Of a stretch of DNA of 64,000 nt, positions 57,538-63,290 are shown one piece after another. Location of the stretch: positions 318 to 64,317 of the forward strand of contig DAOVDU010000002.1 in the NCBI GenBank assembly GCA_030669305.1, read 5' to 3'. A program made the position numbers and the translations under genes. Below the pieces are notes generated by a model that had not been told where the DNA came from, did no database searches, and saw only the letters and a list, made by a program, of their open reading frames with translations. Origin of the DNA: Candidatus Aminicenantes bacterium (lineage in GTDB: Bacteria > Acidobacteriota > Aminicenantia > Aminicenantales > Aminicenantaceae). The stretch's first letter is position 1. Every line of letters starts with the position of its first letter.

Positions 57538-58476
57538 TTAAACAGTTTCTCCACAGTGGGGACAATTTTTTGCTTTATAAGGTAAAGGTCTTCTACAGTT
57601 CCAGCAAAAATCTGCTTTTCTCCTTTCCCGTGCTTTTATCCTTCCCCATATGTCCTCAATTTCTGACTTTGCAGAGTTTTTTCCCTTAAATGAGGAAAGA
57701 TCTTTTATTATTCCTGAAGCCTTCTGATATCTTTCTTCAATCTTGGAGGAAAGGCATTTCATGATTATTTTGTCAATTTCTTTCGGAATTTTATTGTTTT
57801 TTAGACGAGGCGGTGTTATTTCCCCTTTTTGCGCCTTTTCCAGGATCTTAAAGGGGTCAGGATCAAATATGGGAGGCCTCCCGATAATCATCTCATAAAA
57901 AATGCATCCGATAGAATAAATGTCTGATCTAAAAGTTGCCTTTCCTAAAAATTGTTCTGGTGCCATATATGGAGGAGATCCAATTCGAGTTGATGCATAT
58001 GGAATATTGTTCAGCCAAGCTGAAGTTCCGAAATCCGTGATTTTAATTTTTCCTTCATCTGAAATGATTATGTTTGAAGGCCTTAAATCCCTGTGAACGA
58101 TCTTATTCGAATGTGCATGATTAACAGCATCTGAAATTTGTATGATATAATCAATAGCAGTTTCAGCATCGAGGACTTTATCCTTTTCTAATATTTTTTC
58201 CATTGTTTTTCCTTTAATATACTCCATAACCATAAAGAAAACTTTGTTTTCCTTTTCTGCAGAAATCATGCGTACGATATTAGGATGGTTCAAGGCAGCT
58301 TGAAGTCTTGACTCTTTAAGAAGCTTAAACAGCTCTGTAGATTGCTTGTGGGGAACCTTTATAGCCACCTTAATATTGAGCCAGGTGTCTTTGGCAAGAA
58401 ATACAGAACCAAAACCGCCGCTTCCAAGTGAGCGTAGAATCTGATACTTGCCTACTTTTTGACCTTGAAGAAACAT
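57538..58476 (-). CDS. Ser/Thr protein kinase with C-terminal zinc-ribbon
   Basis: GSGGFGSV, VAIK, HRDLRPSNI, DFG and APE motifs. C-terminal CWNC...CPHCG zinc ribbon. Confidence 0.8.
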   Translation of the reverse strand: MFLQGQKVGKYQILRSLGSGGFGSVFLAKDTWLNIKVAIKVPHKQSTELFKLLKESRLQAALNHPNIVRMISAEKENKVFFMVMEYIKGKTMEKILEKDKVLDAETAIDYIIQISDAVNHAHSNKIVHRDLRPSNIIISDEGKIKITDFGTSAWLNNIPYASTRIGSPPYMAPEQFLGKATFRSDIYSIGCIFYEMIIGRPPIFDPDPFKILEKAQKGEITPPRLKNNKIPKEIDKIIMKCLSSKIEERYQKASGIIKDLSSFKGKNSAKSEIEDIWGRIKARERRKADFCWNCRRPLPYKAKNCPHCGETV

Positions 58477-58515
58477 ATTATATATTCCAAAAATGAGATA
58501 TTATTGCCAAACTAA

Positions 58516-58710
58516 TTAGAGCCGCGTATCGCTTTTTCCAATTTCTTCAAATCTGGCCAAATAGTTGATGCCGTTTGCATCAAAGAGCCAAACTGTTTTT
58601 TTTGGTTTTATCCTGGCTACTTTGCTTAAATGGTGATGCTCATCTCCGTCTAGAAGAATGTAAGAAGAATGAATGTTGCTATCTTTTATAAAGAAACGAT
58701 TCGAAGTCAA
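58516..58710 (-). pseudogene. rsmE: N-terminal 64-codon remnant of 16S rRNA methyltransferase RsmE
   Basis: MTSNRFFIKDSNI...LDGDEHHHLSKVARIKPKKTVWLFDANGINYLARFEEI matches the RsmE N-terminal PUA-like domain. The ORF ends after 64 aa, only about 40 nt before the kinase start. Full length would be about 240 aa. Confidence 0.5.
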
Positions 58711-58718
58711 AATTTACT

Positions 58719-59852
58719 CTAATGAAATATATTTTTCACTTTGCCAATAATGCTTTTGTCAACAACTTCAGAATTTTCTCCTAAAGAATCAGCAAATTTC
58801 CGAAGCAATTGCTTTTGTTCGTTTGTTAAATTTTTTGGGGTCTCCACATTAACTTTAATAAATAAATCTCCCTTTCTATAGCTGTGAAGGTCTTTTATGC
58901 CTTTTCCTTTTAATCTGAAAGTTTCTCCTGGCTGGGTTCCTGGTGGAATTTTCAATATTTCATTTTCCTCAATTGTAGGAATTTCTACGGTTGTTCCCAA
59001 AGAAGCTTTAGAAAAAGATATTGGAATTTGACAATAGAGGTTATTGTCTTCCCTATTAAAAAATTTATGTTTTTTTACATGTATGATGACATAAAGGTCT
59101 CCACGCGCTGCTCCTTTATCTCCAACTTCCCCTTCTCCCTCGATTCTAAGCTTTGTACCGTTGTCGACTCCAGCTGGAATTTTCATATGTAAATATTTCT
59201 TCTCTTTTACTTTGCCTGTACCTTGGCATCTTTCACAGGGAGATGTTATTACCTCGCCGTGGCCATTGCAATTGGGACAGGTGCGGGAAATTGTAAAAAA
59301 ACCCTGGTTGTAGCGAACCTGGCCTCTTCCTTGGCAATGCTGACATACAGTTTTTTTTGATCCAGGAAGCATCTTCGAACCATGGCAAACCGGACAGAAT
59401 TCTAATTGGTTAAGCTTAATTTCTTTTTCTACACCAAGAGCAGCTTCCTCCAATGTGACTTCAAACTCAAGGGCAAGGTCTCTTCCCCTATTTGGATAAT
59501 TCCCTCTTCTTTGATGTCGGTTGCTAAATAAGTCTCCGAAGCCAAAGTTAAAAAAATTTCCGAGAATATCTTCAAAACCCTCAAAAATTGATGAATTAAA
59601 ACCTGAAAATCCGTTGAAACCTTCTCCTCGCAGCCCTTCATGACCGAATCGATCATAAATAGACCTCTTTTCTGGATCGATCAAGACACTATAAGCTTCA
59701 GCTGTTTCTTTAAATTTTTCTTCTGCTTTCTTATCTCCAGGATTTCTGTCAGGATGGTATTTGAGGGCCATTTGACGGTAGGCCCTCTTAATTTGTTCTG
59801 AAGAAGAATTGTGAGAGATTCCTAAAATTTCATAATAATCCTGTTTAGTCAT
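58719..59852 (-). CDS. dnaJ: Chaperone DnaJ (J-domain, G/F region, four CxxCxGxG zinc-finger repeats)
   Basis: HPD motif in the J-domain (YHPDRNPGD) and four CxxCxGxG repeats. 377 aa. Confidence 0.9.
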
Positions 59853-59877
59853 CCTACTCTACCTCAAGTTCTTCGAT

Positions 59878-61425
59878 TTAAGTTCTTTTGATGATCTTGT
59901 TAATTTCTTCTTGGGTAAGACCAAAAGAAGGTCTAACCTCAATCTTTTGTTCTTTACCAGTATATACATCTTTGGCGGATACCTTTGCTAATCCATCAGA
60001 GTCTATTTCAAATGTTACATCTATTTGTGGAACGCCGGCTGAAGCAGATTCGATTCCGACCAAATCAAACACAGCCAAAGGTTTGTTTTCAGAGCTTTTT
60101 TCACTTTCTCCCTGCAGGACTTTAACCTTCACTCTTCTTTGGTTATGTTCAACAGTCGTAAAGGAACGGCTCTTTTTACATGGGATGGTTGTATTTTTTT
60201 CAATTATTCTGATAAATATATCGTTTTCAGTATCTATACCTAACGATAAAGGAGTAACATCAAGGAGAAGAATGAGATCTTTCATTTTGCCCTTCAGAAT
60301 TCCTGACTGGATTGCTGCTCCCATAGCCACAATTTCATCTGGATTTATATGTTCAAGTGGTTCTTTCCCAAAAAATTCAGTAATTGTCTTCCTTATCAAT
60401 GGCATTCGTGTTTGTCCTCCCACAAGGATAACCTCATCAATGTTTTCGCATCCTAATTTACTGTCATTGAGAGCCTGCTCTATGAATGGAAGCGCTTTGT
60501 CTACAAGATCCCTGGTCAACTCTTCGAGCTTTTTTCTTGTGAGATTTTTTCTTATGTGTTTGGATCCTGATTTTTCTGAACATATGAAAGGAAGATGAAT
60601 TTCGCTTTCAAGAGTAAAAGAAAGCTCTCGTTTCGCTTTTTCAGCTGCTTCCTTTATTCTCTGAAGGGCCAACTTATCCTGAGAAAGATCGATATTATTC
60701 TCTTTCTTAAATTCATCTATCAACCAATCCAATATGCGATTATCAAAATCTTCTCCTCCAAGGTATGTGTTTCCGTTTGTTGCCAATACTTGGAAAATAC
60801 CATCATTGATTTCCATTAGTGTTATATCAAAGGTGCCACCGCCTATATCGAAAACAGCGATTGTAGCATTTTTTTTCGTGTTAAACCCATAGGTTAAGCT
60901 TGCGGATGTAGGCTCATTAATGACTCGAATTACTTCTAAGCCAACAATTTTGGCTGCATCTTTTGTTGCTTGCCTTTGATGGTCATCAAAGTGAGCAGGA
61001 ACTGTAATAACTGTTTCAGTGACTTTGTCTCCTAAGTAAGATTCAGCACACTCTTTCAAATATTTCAGAATCATAGCTGATATTTCCTGAGGGCTTATCA
61101 AGCGTGAATCGAGTTCAACTACAGCGTCGCCGTTTGGCGATTCGGCTAATCTGTAGAGTATCCTATTTTTCGTGTCGTTCACCTCTTCTGAATTGAATTT
61201 CTTCCCCATCAGCCTCTTTATAGCAATGATGGTATTTTCAGGATTTGTAATAGCCTGCCGCATGGCTAGATTACCGATGAGCCTTTCACCGGACGTGGTG
61301 AAACTCACAACCGAAGGCGTTGTTGAGAGACCATCAAGATTGGGGATAATTCTTGGTTCGTTCCCTTCTAGATAAGCAACGCAGGAATAGGTCGTTCCCA
61401 GGTCTATACCTATTATATGTCCCAT
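59878..61425 (-). CDS. dnaK: Hsp70 chaperone DnaK, ending right after the substrate-binding beta-domain (no helical lid)
   Basis: IGIDLGTTYSCVA, DLGGGTFD and the VLLLDVTPLSLGIDT linker are present. The C-terminus is ...VSAKDVYTGKEQKIEVRPSFGLTQEEINKIIKRT* at 515 aa, against about 610-640 aa for canonical DnaK. Only 25 nt separate it from dnaJ. Confidence 0.85.
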   Translation of the reverse strand: MGHIIGIDLGTTYSCVAYLEGNEPRIIPNLDGLSTTPSVVSFTTSGERLIGNLAMRQAITNPENTIIAIKRLMGKKFNSEEVNDTKNRILYRLAESPNGDAVVELDSRLISPQEISAMILKYLKECAESYLGDKVTETVITVPAHFDDHQRQATKDAAKIVGLEVIRVINEPTSASLTYGFNTKKNATIAVFDIGGGTFDITLMEINDGIFQVLATNGNTYLGGEDFDNRILDWLIDEFKKENNIDLSQDKLALQRIKEAAEKAKRELSFTLESEIHLPFICSEKSGSKHIRKNLTRKKLEELTRDLVDKALPFIEQALNDSKLGCENIDEVILVGGQTRMPLIRKTITEFFGKEPLEHINPDEIVAMGAAIQSGILKGKMKDLILLLDVTPLSLGIDTENDIFIRIIEKNTTIPCKKSRSFTTVEHNQRRVKVKVLQGESEKSSENKPLAVFDLVGIESASAGVPQIDVTFEIDSDGLAKVSAKDVYTGKEQKIEVRPSFGLTQEEINKIIKRT

Positions 61426-61427
61426 AT

Positions 61428-62039
61428 TTAATTCCCTTTTTTAGGAACAACAACTTTGACCAAGGCTGGGCGCAGCAGTCTGTTATGAAGGGTATAGCCT
61501 TGCTGTAATTCTTCAATAACCTCTGCATCTTCTACCTCATCAGATTCTTCCGTGATGAAGGCCTGATGGAGATGAGGATCAAATTTTTTCCCTTTGCTTT
61601 CAATAGGGGTAACTCCTTGTTTTATCAACAGACGTAGACACTGCTTATAGATCAATTCAATGCCTTCCTGGAAGCTTTTGGTGTCCCTTTGGTCTTTGCT
61701 TTTTATGGCTCTTTCAAAATTATCGAGTACAACAAGAAGCTCTTTTAATAGATCAATGAGAGCATATTGGTAGAATTCATTTTTTTCTCTTTCTAACCTT
61801 TTTCTTGCATTTTCTTTATCGGCTATGGCCCTTAAGTAGTCTTCTTTGATTTTTTTCATTTCTTTCTTGAGCTTCTTAATTTCTGTTTCTTTCTTTTTTA
61901 ATTTATTCTTCAATGTTTTGGTTTCATTCTGTTTATCTTTATGCTCTATATCTTTGTCGATTATATATTCAATCTCAATCTCTTTTTCCTGTTTTTCCCC
62001 TTTTGCTTCTACAGATTGCGTTCCGATTCTCTTTGGCAT
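61428..62039 (-). CDS. grpE: Nucleotide exchange factor GrpE
   Basis: Coiled-coil N-terminus and a C-terminal beta-domain. Position between hrcA and dnaK. 203 aa. Confidence 0.85.
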   Translation of the reverse strand: MPKRIGTQSVEAKGEKQEKEIEIEYIIDKDIEHKDKQNETKTLKNKLKKKETEIKKLKKEMKKIKEDYLRAIADKENARKRLEREKNEFYQYALIDLLKELLVVLDNFERAIKSKDQRDTKSFQEGIELIYKQCLRLLIKQGVTPIESKGKKFDPHLHQAFITEESDEVEDAEVIEELQQGYTLHNRLLRPALVKVVVPKKGN

Positions 62040-62048
62040 CTTTCCTCC

Positions 62049-63092
62049 TTATTGAGAAAAACTAATAGTTTGGCTCAACTTTTTGGCCATATAATCCACT
62101 AAAGGGATGATTTTTTTGTATGGAATTCTTTTCGGGCCTATTATGCCCAAGGAGCCTAATACCTGTCTGTCATATCCATAGTGGGAAAGAACAATGGAAC
62201 AGTCTGAAATATTTGGAAGATTCAGTTCTGTTCCGATCAATACTTTGACTCTGTCAAGAATGATAAAATCAGAAAGGAGTTTCGCGAACTTTGTCCTTTC
62301 CTCAAAGTTTTGGAAAAGGGACTTCAGGATTTCGGTCTCGAAAAGTTCAGGTTTTTCCAATAATTTTGAAGTTCCTCGTAAAAAGATTTGGTTTTCTCTT
62401 TCTTCCTGAAAAATATAAGCTCTAAGAAGGGAAATTATTTTACGAATGGTATTCTCGTATCTCACCCTAAATTTAGGCACTTCCCTTAGAAGGTAATTGC
62501 GAATAAAAACCAGGTTGTTTCCCCTAAAATTTTCATTAATGTAATGCGAAGCTCTATCAAGTTCGACTTGTGTAAAATAGCTCGTTGTCTCTACGATTTC
62601 GGTTAAAACGAGATTAGAGGATGTGATCAAAATAATCATGACCTTTTCTTCAGATACTTTGATAAAGCGGATATGATGAAAATTTATTCTAGATATTCTA
62701 GGTGAGAGGACGAATCCAAGATTATCAGAATGCTCTGATAGTATTTTTGAAACATGAACAAGGAGAGAGTTGAAATCGCCTTTTTTGAGAATAAAATCTT
62801 CGGTTGAGAAGTTGACTTGTTTTTCTGGAAAGATGGCTTCTTCAAACAAATTATTGACGTAAAATCTAAAGCCTTTATCTGATGGAATGCGTCCTGCGGA
62901 TGTATGAGGTTGATCAAGGTATCCTTGATTCTCTAGCTTGACCATTATATTTCTAACTGTAGCAGAGGAAACAGAGATACTGCTAATTTGAGCAATATAT
63001 CTTGAGCTTACTGGCTTTCCAATTTTAAGATAGCTCTCAACAATTAATTGGAGTATATGTTTGTCTTTTTGTCTTAGTAATTGTTCCTGCAA
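62049..63092 (-). CDS. hrcA: Heat-inducible transcription repressor HrcA
   Basis: N-terminal winged HTH (..ILQLIVESYLKIGKPVSSRYIA..) and HrcA C-domain. 347 aa. First gene of hrcA-grpE-dnaK-dnaJ. Confidence 0.85.
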   Translation of the reverse strand: MQEQLLRQKDKHILQLIVESYLKIGKPVSSRYIAQISSISVSSATVRNIMVKLENQGYLDQPHTSAGRIPSDKGFRFYVNNLFEEAIFPEKQVNFSTEDFILKKGDFNSLLVHVSKILSEHSDNLGFVLSPRISRINFHHIRFIKVSEEKVMIILITSSNLVLTEIVETTSYFTQVELDRASHYINENFRGNNLVFIRNYLLREVPKFRVRYENTIRKIISLLRAYIFQEERENQIFLRGTSKLLEKPELFETEILKSLFQNFEERTKFAKLLSDFIILDRVKVLIGTELNLPNISDCSIVLSHYGYDRQVLGSLGIIGPKRIPYKKIIPLVDYMAKKLSQTISFSQ

Positions 63093-63147
63093 TGTGTTTC
63101 CTCTGAATAAAATTATATCATTAAATCTTAAAAATCTTCAAATTACT

Positions 63148-63276
63148 TTAGTCGGTTGAGTCCGTTTAGTCCATTATGTTAATTCCCGTTTATCTGGTTT
63201 ATCTGGTTTGTTTTGTTTCTCTGCTTCATTAATTTACTTTGTTAAATAACAGACTAACCGATTAACCGACTAACAG
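63148..63276. repeat. Third composite inverted TAAC-octamer array, containing tctggtttatctggtttg (inverse of the motif at 35487-35504)
   Basis: tagtcggt tgagtccg tttagtcc ... cgtttatctggtttatctggtttg ... gttaaataacagactaaccgattaaccgactaacag. Confidence 0.75.
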
Positions 63277-63290
63277 AAATAAGTTTTGAG

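Follow-up and report, generated by a model that had tools for sequence, protein, structure and literature searches.

A lid-less DnaK in the hrcA-grpE-dnaK-dnaJ operon of Aminicenantes

The dnaK gene of the window

The window analyzed here is a 64,000-nt stretch of DNA from a Candidatus Aminicenantes bacterium (assembly GCA_030669305.1, contig DAOVDU010000002.1, positions 318 to 64,317), and it carries on its minus strand the tightly packed genes hrcA-grpE-dnaK-dnaJ, of which dnaK encodes an Hsp70 of 515 amino acids ending in ...GLTQEEINKIIKRT at a TAA stop codon (59878-59880). An earlier reading of the window, made from the sequence alone, had proposed that this DnaK lacks the C-terminal helical lid, and this was borne out by end-to-end alignment with residues 1-519 of E. 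coli DnaK (638 amino acids), across which the two proteins share ~54% identity. Since residues 1-513 of the query aligned with E. coli DnaK 1-517 without large gaps in the comparison with solved structures (E=1e-180), T515 of the window protein corresponds to A519 of E. coli, as also placed by the multiple alignment. Residues 520-638 of E. coli DnaK, that is lid helices B-E and the tail, have no counterpart; the missing part had been put at about 100 amino acids plus a tail, while the alignment gives ~119 amino acids in total with the tail included. Similarly, the end point had been placed at the start of the lid, which holds for helices B-E, but the stop codon falls inside lid helix A, of which a conserved stub of ~12 residues is retained. 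The gene and its parts are as follows.

59878-61425, minus strand: dnaK, 515 amino acids, without lid helices B-E and C-terminal tail (open reading frame, profile matches and alignment)
60289-61425, minus strand: nucleotide-binding domain, amino acids 1-379 (invariant catalytic residues; predicted local distance difference test, pLDDT, of the AlphaFold2 model mostly >88)
60259-60288, minus strand: interdomain linker, amino acids 380-389, ...KDLILLLD (alignment; L391 and D393 in E. coli numbering invariant in the clade)
59917-60258, minus strand: substrate-binding beta-basket, amino acids 390-503, with altered arch and latch residues E400, V425, H427 and A463 (AlphaFold2 strands, kept pocket residues)
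59881-59916, minus strand: helix-A stub, amino acids 504-515, TQEEINKIIKRT, the sole remnant of the lid (AlphaFold2 helix 505-514, conserved hydrophobic face)

Catalytic, linker and pocket residues, together with the predicted fold, confirmed that the nucleotide-binding domain, the linker and the beta-sandwich domain are complete. The linker sequence quoted previously, VLLLDVTPLSLG, has to be corrected to LILLLDVTPLSLG; its DLILLLD, compared with 388-DVLLLD-393 of E. coli, is a canonical hydrophobic linker. The protein scored 756 bits with the NCBIfam DnaK model NF001413 (cut-off 648), matching profile positions 1-509 of 625, and the Pfam HSP70 match covered positions 1-512 of 599. Only 25 nt (59853-59877) separate the stop codon from dnaJ, as had been noted, and the further claim that the lid is not encoded in another frame also stood, as tblastn searches with the lids of E. 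coli, one acidobacterial and one alphaproteobacterial DnaK found no match in any frame of the window or of the 43 loci of relatives described below.

The truncation in independent assemblies and in relatives

A protein 98% identical to the window DnaK (P0002) was found on contigs of three independent assemblies, two Joint Genome Institute metagenomes and one Logan assembly, with identical length (515 codons), stop codon, 25-nt junction and neighboring genes, and a single base change in the spacer. Mis-assembly or collapse, for which the sequence-only reading had allowed, is refuted by this agreement of three assemblies on gene and junction. Between the window and the P0002 contigs, dnaK has 13 synonymous and 13 non-synonymous differences, corresponding to a ratio of non-synonymous to synonymous substitution rates (dN/dS) of ~0.27 and therefore indicating purifying selection on the lid-less gene.

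The 120 best homologues among 5.8 billion proteins come from many assemblies and are 71-98% identical to the window DnaK, and every one has a length of 510-567 amino acids; those carrying a name are assigned to 'Candidatus Aminicenantes' or 'Acidobacteriota', and the single protein of 567 amino acids ends in a Glu/Lys-rich low-complexity tail that is not a lid. In a species-representative genome collection, hrcA-grpE-dnaK was present at 43 of 43 Aminicenantes-type loci (61-76% identity) and was followed by dnaJ at 41 of them, the contigs of the remaining two stopping inside dnaK. All 40 complete dnaK genes among these loci encode 521-535 amino acids, and alphaproteobacterial and acidobacterial gp2 loci from the same scan carry DnaKs of 636-645 amino acids. 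Alignment with orthologues of related taxa thus showed every relative at this locus to be truncated at the same place, which likewise refutes an assembly collapse and is the opposite of the full-length relatives that the sequence-only reading had named as evidence against itself.

The clade varies in how the gene ends. Behind the helix-A stub follow 0-20 variable, charged residues (median 7), the lineage of the window having the shortest form. The dnaK stop codon lies inside dnaJ at 33 of 41 junctions (the window counted), with overlaps of 4-23 nt, and the other eight have spacers of 5-25 nt; among the relatives, the junctions range from a spacer of 18 nt to an overlap of 23 nt. A C-terminal '...GLL' or '(K/T)(G/R)LL' motif, which could be taken for a functional tail, was rejected as an out-of-frame reading of the DYYE codons of dnaJ: where the genes overlap, GGA TTA TTA TGA of dnaK is the +1 frame of G GAT TAT TAT GA(A) of dnaJ. 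The apparent LL ending was seen at the dnaK 3' ends of loci L011, L012, L024, L025, L026 and L028 and in proteins P0009, P0035 and P0120.

Descent of the lid-less gene

An exhaustive HMMER scan of 1.84 billion representatives clustered at 50% identity recovered the whole lid-less clade as one representative (P0035), and the next-best full-length proteins were at most 54% identical to the clade. The best full-length relative, P0124, belongs to a group of DnaKs of 603-630 amino acids from Blastocatellia, Pyrinomonadaceae and other Acidobacteriota, the genes of which lie directly downstream of hrcA. We considered P0124 as a possible Aminicenantes paralogue and rejected it, as its relatives are those of Blastocatellia and Pyrinomonadaceae and it adjoins its own hrcA in non-Aminicenantes assemblies.

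In a neighbor-joining tree of 118 sequences (502 shared columns, 30 bootstrap replicates), the 48 lid-less Aminicenantes DnaKs formed one split in 30 of 30 bootstraps, with the full-length acidobacterial DnaK group as sister. Monophyly and a full-length acidobacterial sister make one ancient deletion the simplest history: a single event in the stem lineage of Aminicenantes would have taken out everything between the last part of helix A and dnaJ, and with it helices B-E and the disordered tail. Judged from sequence, the lid-less gene is the vertically inherited DnaK orthologue of Aminicenantes (class Aminicenantia, Acidobacteriota). The proposal of a naturally lid-less DnaK is thereby supported by orthology, by purifying selection and by the intact nucleotide-binding domain, linker and beta-basket.

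Residues kept and residues lost with the lid

To describe the protein by residue, 161 clade members, the window included, were compared with 36 diverse full-length DnaKs (E. coli numbering). The catalytic and allosteric residues K70, E171, T199, D201, R151, D148, N415, P419 and Q442 are invariant in all 161 clade members, as are G32 of the GrpE loop and L391 and D393 of the linker, and the pocket residues I401, F426, V436 and I438 have been retained. Compared in pairs, clade members average 71% identity in linker and basket, 68% in the ATPase domain and 37% in the helix-A stub. The stub preserves its hydrophobic face, with I or V at position 512, I in place of M515 in 148 of 161 and I in place of V516 in 136 of 161 members. 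The latch, arch and salt-bridge roles of DnaK residues have been described (PMC8215388), as have the DnaK residue communities (PMC5240922), and the clade departs from full-length DnaKs at the following of these positions.

R467, partner of D540: Ala in 158 of 161
D431, partner of H544: mostly His or Asn, D in 20 of 161
R445, which forms a contact cluster together with N451 and M515 of helix A: Ser, Glu or Asn
M404, arch: Glu in 161 of 161
A429, arch: Val in 159 of 161
K55, one half of an upper nucleotide-cleft salt bridge: never Lys

Prokaryotic DnaKs have Met or Leu at position 404, and their A429 is highly conserved (PMC8215388). Position 55 is occupied by Leu, Gln or Met in all 161 members (M55 in the window, codon 61261-61263, minus strand), so that K55-E267, one of two bridges across the nucleotide cleft, is lost, while R56, E264 and E267 remain. 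Loss of nucleotide-cleft salt bridges accompanies much faster ADP release according to the literature, and the nucleotide cycle may have been retuned together with the loss of the lid. The first five residues of the list touch the lid in canonical DnaK, and with their replacement the basket surface formerly facing the lid has been remodelled; taken with the lost K55 bridge, this suggests a retuned and faster-cycling machine.

Predicted structure and a proposed working cycle

AlphaFold2, supplied with 121 sequences of the clade, gave a confident model (pLDDT 89.6, predicted template modelling score 0.88) in which residues 386-496 form eight beta strands and residues 505-514 a terminal helix. 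The model superimposed on the ATP-state, domain-docked DnaK structures 7kzu, 7ko2 and 4b9q with template modelling scores of 0.94-0.97 and a root mean square deviation of ~2 A.

We consider it probable that this protein is a working, vertically inherited Hsp70 that depends on DnaJ and GrpE, clamps its clients with the basket only and exchanges them fast. With ATP bound, basket and linker would be docked on the ATPase domain, and the helix-A stub would be packed on lobe I. DnaJ and a client would then trigger ATP hydrolysis, upon which the basket would undock and close on the client alone, with neither lid nor latch. Because the basket would close in this way, clients should bind and leave faster than with canonical DnaK, and bulky or aggregated clients should be handled equally well; nucleotide release is possibly faster through the lost K55 bridge, and GrpE would reset the cycle. 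The ATPase domain, linker, basket, helix-A stub and operon partners, all found intact, agree with an ordinary Hsp70 cycle in which the basket is the sole part to close on the client; the kinetics, the dependence on DnaJ and GrpE and the role as main Hsp70 are inferred.

The expectation of a fast-exchanging Hsp70 acting on extended segments and on bulky or aggregated clients follows from data on engineered E. coli variants. The engineered DnaK1-507 keeps the interaction with DnaJ, binding to aggregates, recruitment of ClpB and reactivation of aggregates (PMC5895705), and removal of the lid raises the on- and off-rates of peptides, as stated in the title of a study to which the same paper refers (Buczynski et al., 2001). 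Truncation of the lid also abolishes the holding of folded intermediates by DnaK against force (PMC8215388).

Sole DnaK or specialized copy

In our estimate, there is slightly less than an even chance that the whole proteostasis network of Aminicenantes runs on this DnaK with no other Hsp70 of the DnaK type beside it, lid and tail having been gone for hundreds of millions of years. If true, it would mean that the lid is dispensable for the essential in vivo functions of Hsp70, and it would suggest that the loss can be made up for by a remodelled arch (Glu404/Val429) together with a loosened nucleotide cleft.

Several points weigh against the reading as a working, fast-exchanging main Hsp70. 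According to a review from 2026, none of the bona fide DnaKs in the surveyed genomes is without the lid, and lid-deleted 'derivates' are always extra paralogues beside a canonical DnaK (PMC13580251). A canonical, lid-bearing DnaK could coexist elsewhere in the genome, as the sequence-only reading had allowed, and do the housekeeping. Moreover, the score with the second DnaK model, TIGR02350, was 733 bits and under its stricter cut-off of 823, which is due to the missing lid; the full-length set used for the residue statistics was small (36 sequences); and the predicted kinetics are an extrapolation from deletion mutants of E. coli.

The most probable alternative is one in which a canonical DnaK is encoded elsewhere and the lid-less Hsp70 of the operon has been sub-functionalized, for example for aggregates or for particular clients. 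We regard it as rather unlikely. It is in line with the paralogous 'derivates' described in the review and with the other short Hsp70 lineages in the databases, such as the 508-amino-acid P0136/P0272 cluster, and a changed substrate specificity is hinted at by the Glu that all clade members have in the arch. However, it is the lid-less gene that occupies the ancestral hrcA-grpE-dnaK-dnaJ slot, at 41 of the 43 loci, and that is the phylogenetic orthologue of acidobacterial DnaK, and the P0136/P0272 lineage stands alone, without the grpE and dnaJ neighbors of the operon gene. Furthermore, no full-length protein above 54% identity was found among the 1.84 billion representatives, which argues against a recent lid-bearing duplicate and means that any second copy would have arisen by an old duplication or by transfer. 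The search for a further Hsp70 covered the 64-kb window and ~0.5 Mb of the relatives' flanks and gave none. With no second copy, Aminicenantes would be an exception to both statements of the review, and with a canonical one they would be an unusual case in which the operon copy rather than the extra copy lost its lid.

It is very improbable that the lid is supplied in trans, by a small helical protein or by an extension of GrpE or DnaJ joining the basket non-covalently. Nothing points to this directly: the N-terminal region of GrpE is Lys/Glu-rich and helical and some dnaK tails are charged, but GrpE (203 amino acids) and DnaJ (377 amino acids) are ordinary in length and domain content, the tblastn searches with three lids gave no match, and the basket residues R467, D431 and R445 that would hold a lid have been replaced. 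Finally, an artefact or decay, in which assembly collapse, sequencing error or a recent inactivating deletion left a pseudogene, can be dismissed almost entirely. Deletions do occur at this locus, as the remnant of the downstream rsmE testifies, but the same truncation point recurs in 120 database clusters and 40 species genomes at 61-98% identity as well as in the three independent assemblies, and the dN/dS, the invariant functional residues, the 71% conservation of the basket and the confidently predicted fold all speak against decay.

The role of the Hsp70 lid, for which a kinetic trap, an allosteric element and a binding surface for folded clients have been considered, has been debated for 25 years with the help of engineered deletions in E. 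coli DnaK, BiP and Hsc70. Aminicenantes are a widespread class of anaerobic bacteria of sediments and the subsurface, and a whole bacterial class with a lid-less orthologue of the operon DnaK provides a natural, evolutionarily optimized system with its own DnaJ and GrpE, including a set of candidate compensatory substitutions (M404E, A429V, D431H, R445S, R467A and K55L). Full-text literature searches turned up no earlier account of an Aminicenantes DnaK without a lid, nor of any operon-encoded DnaK that lacks it naturally. Such a DnaK challenges the recent generalization that bona fide DnaKs always carry the lid, and it affects genome annotation, as the lid-less proteins are rejected by TIGR02350, which is one of two main equivalog models for DnaK.

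Comparison with known Hsp70 systems

The window protein shares with canonical E. coli DnaK the nucleotide-binding domain, the catalytic residues, the LLLD linker, the basket pocket, the glycine of the GrpE loop and the partners encoded by hrcA, grpE and dnaJ. E. coli DnaK differs in having helices B-E, a disordered tail of ~30 residues, the latch partners R467 and D431, R445, the arch residues M404 and A429, and K55; of the features of a bona fide DnaK, the alpha-helical lid and the canonical arch are without match in the window protein. The engineered E. coli variants DnaK1-507, DnaK2-517 and DnaK2-538 keep interdomain allostery, and the natural protein ends nearly where DnaK(2-517) does. By analogy, these variants would be the best model for how the Aminicenantes DnaK works. 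However, they are laboratory constructs with a basket adapted to a lid. In the natural protein, arch and former lid interface have been open to remodelling over a long period, and its kinetics may differ from those of the engineered mutants.

The 'DnaK derivates', comprising Myxococcus paralogues and the P0136/P0272 cluster, likewise combine a nucleotide-binding domain and a basket without a lid. In contrast to the Aminicenantes DnaK with its canonical linker and ancestral operon, they are extra paralogues, often with altered linkers and stand-alone genomic contexts. In HscA and HscC, specialized Hsp70s that occur naturally in bacteria, the interaction between lid and basket is reduced (PMC8215388), but they retain the lid in shortened form, do not depend on GrpE and carry deletions in the nucleotide-binding domain or an insertion in L1,2. 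The window protein was also considered as a candidate HscA or HscC, and this was rejected: two HscA models scored 546 and 544 bits against cut-offs of 620 and 709, the DnaK model being best, and among the curated family profiles no HscC-type model was matched. The eukaryotic HSPA14 and Ssz1, Hsp70s of ~510-540 amino acids, also lack the helical lid, but they are unrelated in descent and are non-canonical paralogues acting in the ribosome-associated complex beside canonical Hsp70s.

Other short Hsp70s were encountered in the searches. The proteins P0136/P0272-P0277 (locus L082, 6001-7527) have 508 amino acids and end right after the last basket strand, and their gene sits among glycosyltransferase and dehydrogenase genes on contigs of up to 626 kb. 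This cluster was rejected as a candidate operon DnaK, being a stand-alone paralogue without grpE or dnaJ neighbors. Most or all of the lid is also missing from P0147, P0192, P0218, P0235, P0244 and P0266; together with the P0136/P0272 group, these proteins range from 497 to 536 amino acids and are 43-50% identical to the query.

Operon organization and regulation

The neighbors of dnaK and the signals of the operon are listed below.

62049-63092, minus strand: hrcA, 347 amino acids, TTG start (TIGR00331, 295 bits vs 197)
61428-62039, minus strand: grpE, 203 amino acids, stop codon 2 nt before the dnaK start (NCBIfam NF010738, 159 bits vs 137; Pfam GrpE)
59853-59877, minus strand: dnaK-dnaJ spacer of 25 nt with Shine-Dalgarno-like GAGGTAGAG and no room for a lid (dnaJ ATG at 59852)
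58719-59852, minus strand: dnaJ, 377 amino acids, type I with J domain, G/F region, zinc-finger domain and C-terminal domain (NCBIfam NF008035, 488 bits vs 338)
63112-63141, minus strand: putative sigma-70 promoter of the operon, TTGAAG, 18 nt, TGATATAAT with extended -10 (predicted from sequence)

The product of dnaJ matched Pfam DnaJ, DnaJ_CXXCXGXG and DnaJ_C. The sequence-only reading had called the operon otherwise canonical, and the gene order hrcA-grpE-dnaK-dnaJ and the families were confirmed. In its regulation, however, the operon has no recognizable CIRCE (controlling inverted repeat of chaperone expression) operator and is therefore not canonical in this respect. The consensus TTAGCACTC-N9-GAGTGCTAA had no match in the window at up to 3 mismatches, with the core pattern elsewhere only at chance level, and no CIRCE-like site was found at up to 4 mismatches in 47 loci (L002-L044, L058, L085, L088 and L089), including two of non-Aminicenantes Acidobacteriota. 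Nor was an inverted repeat found upstream of hrcA in the window (63093-63290 region). HrcA of this phylum may use a different operator or may act elsewhere, for example on groESL.

The promoter-related motifs TTGACAAT and TGCTATAAA recur 5' of hrcA in relatives, TGCTATAAA being present in 17 of 35 upstream regions. At loci L007, L018, L030 and L042, the hrcA promoter appears sigma-70-like, with a TTGACA-like -35 element and TGCTATAAA as an extended -10 element. In several species a short inverted repeat, AGATTTA-N6-TAAATCT, overlaps the -10 element and could be a regulator site; the version in the window is degenerate (AGATTTAATGATATAAT).

Downstream genes and record labels

Downstream of dnaJ, the gene rsmE (16S rRNA methyltransferase) is a deletion remnant (58478-58710, minus strand). 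Its first 64 codons (58516-58710), the PUA-like part, are followed by a stop codon and, 5 nt further, by the last 10 codons, LAIISHFWNI*, at 58478-58510, such that ~170 codons are missing, the SPOUT catalytic domain among them. Most relatives have at this position an RsmE of 242-254 amino acids ending in ...ISHFWN, and the 98%-identical contig L085 carries the same remnant. The stop codon of the remnant is followed at 2 nt by the gene of a Ser/Thr protein kinase of 312 amino acids (57538-58476, minus strand), which shares its strand with the chaperone operon and the product of which has a CxxC...CxxC zinc-ribbon-like tail at its C terminus. The arrangement is shared with L085-L087, and in this lineage the kinase gene may be transcribed together with those of the heat-shock operon.

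Many of the genomes carrying the Aminicenantes DnaK clade (L002, L003, L005, L007-L009 and others) carry the public label 'uncultured Eubacteriales bacterium', and one is labelled 'Terriglobales bacterium'; these names look like placeholders or mis-assignments.

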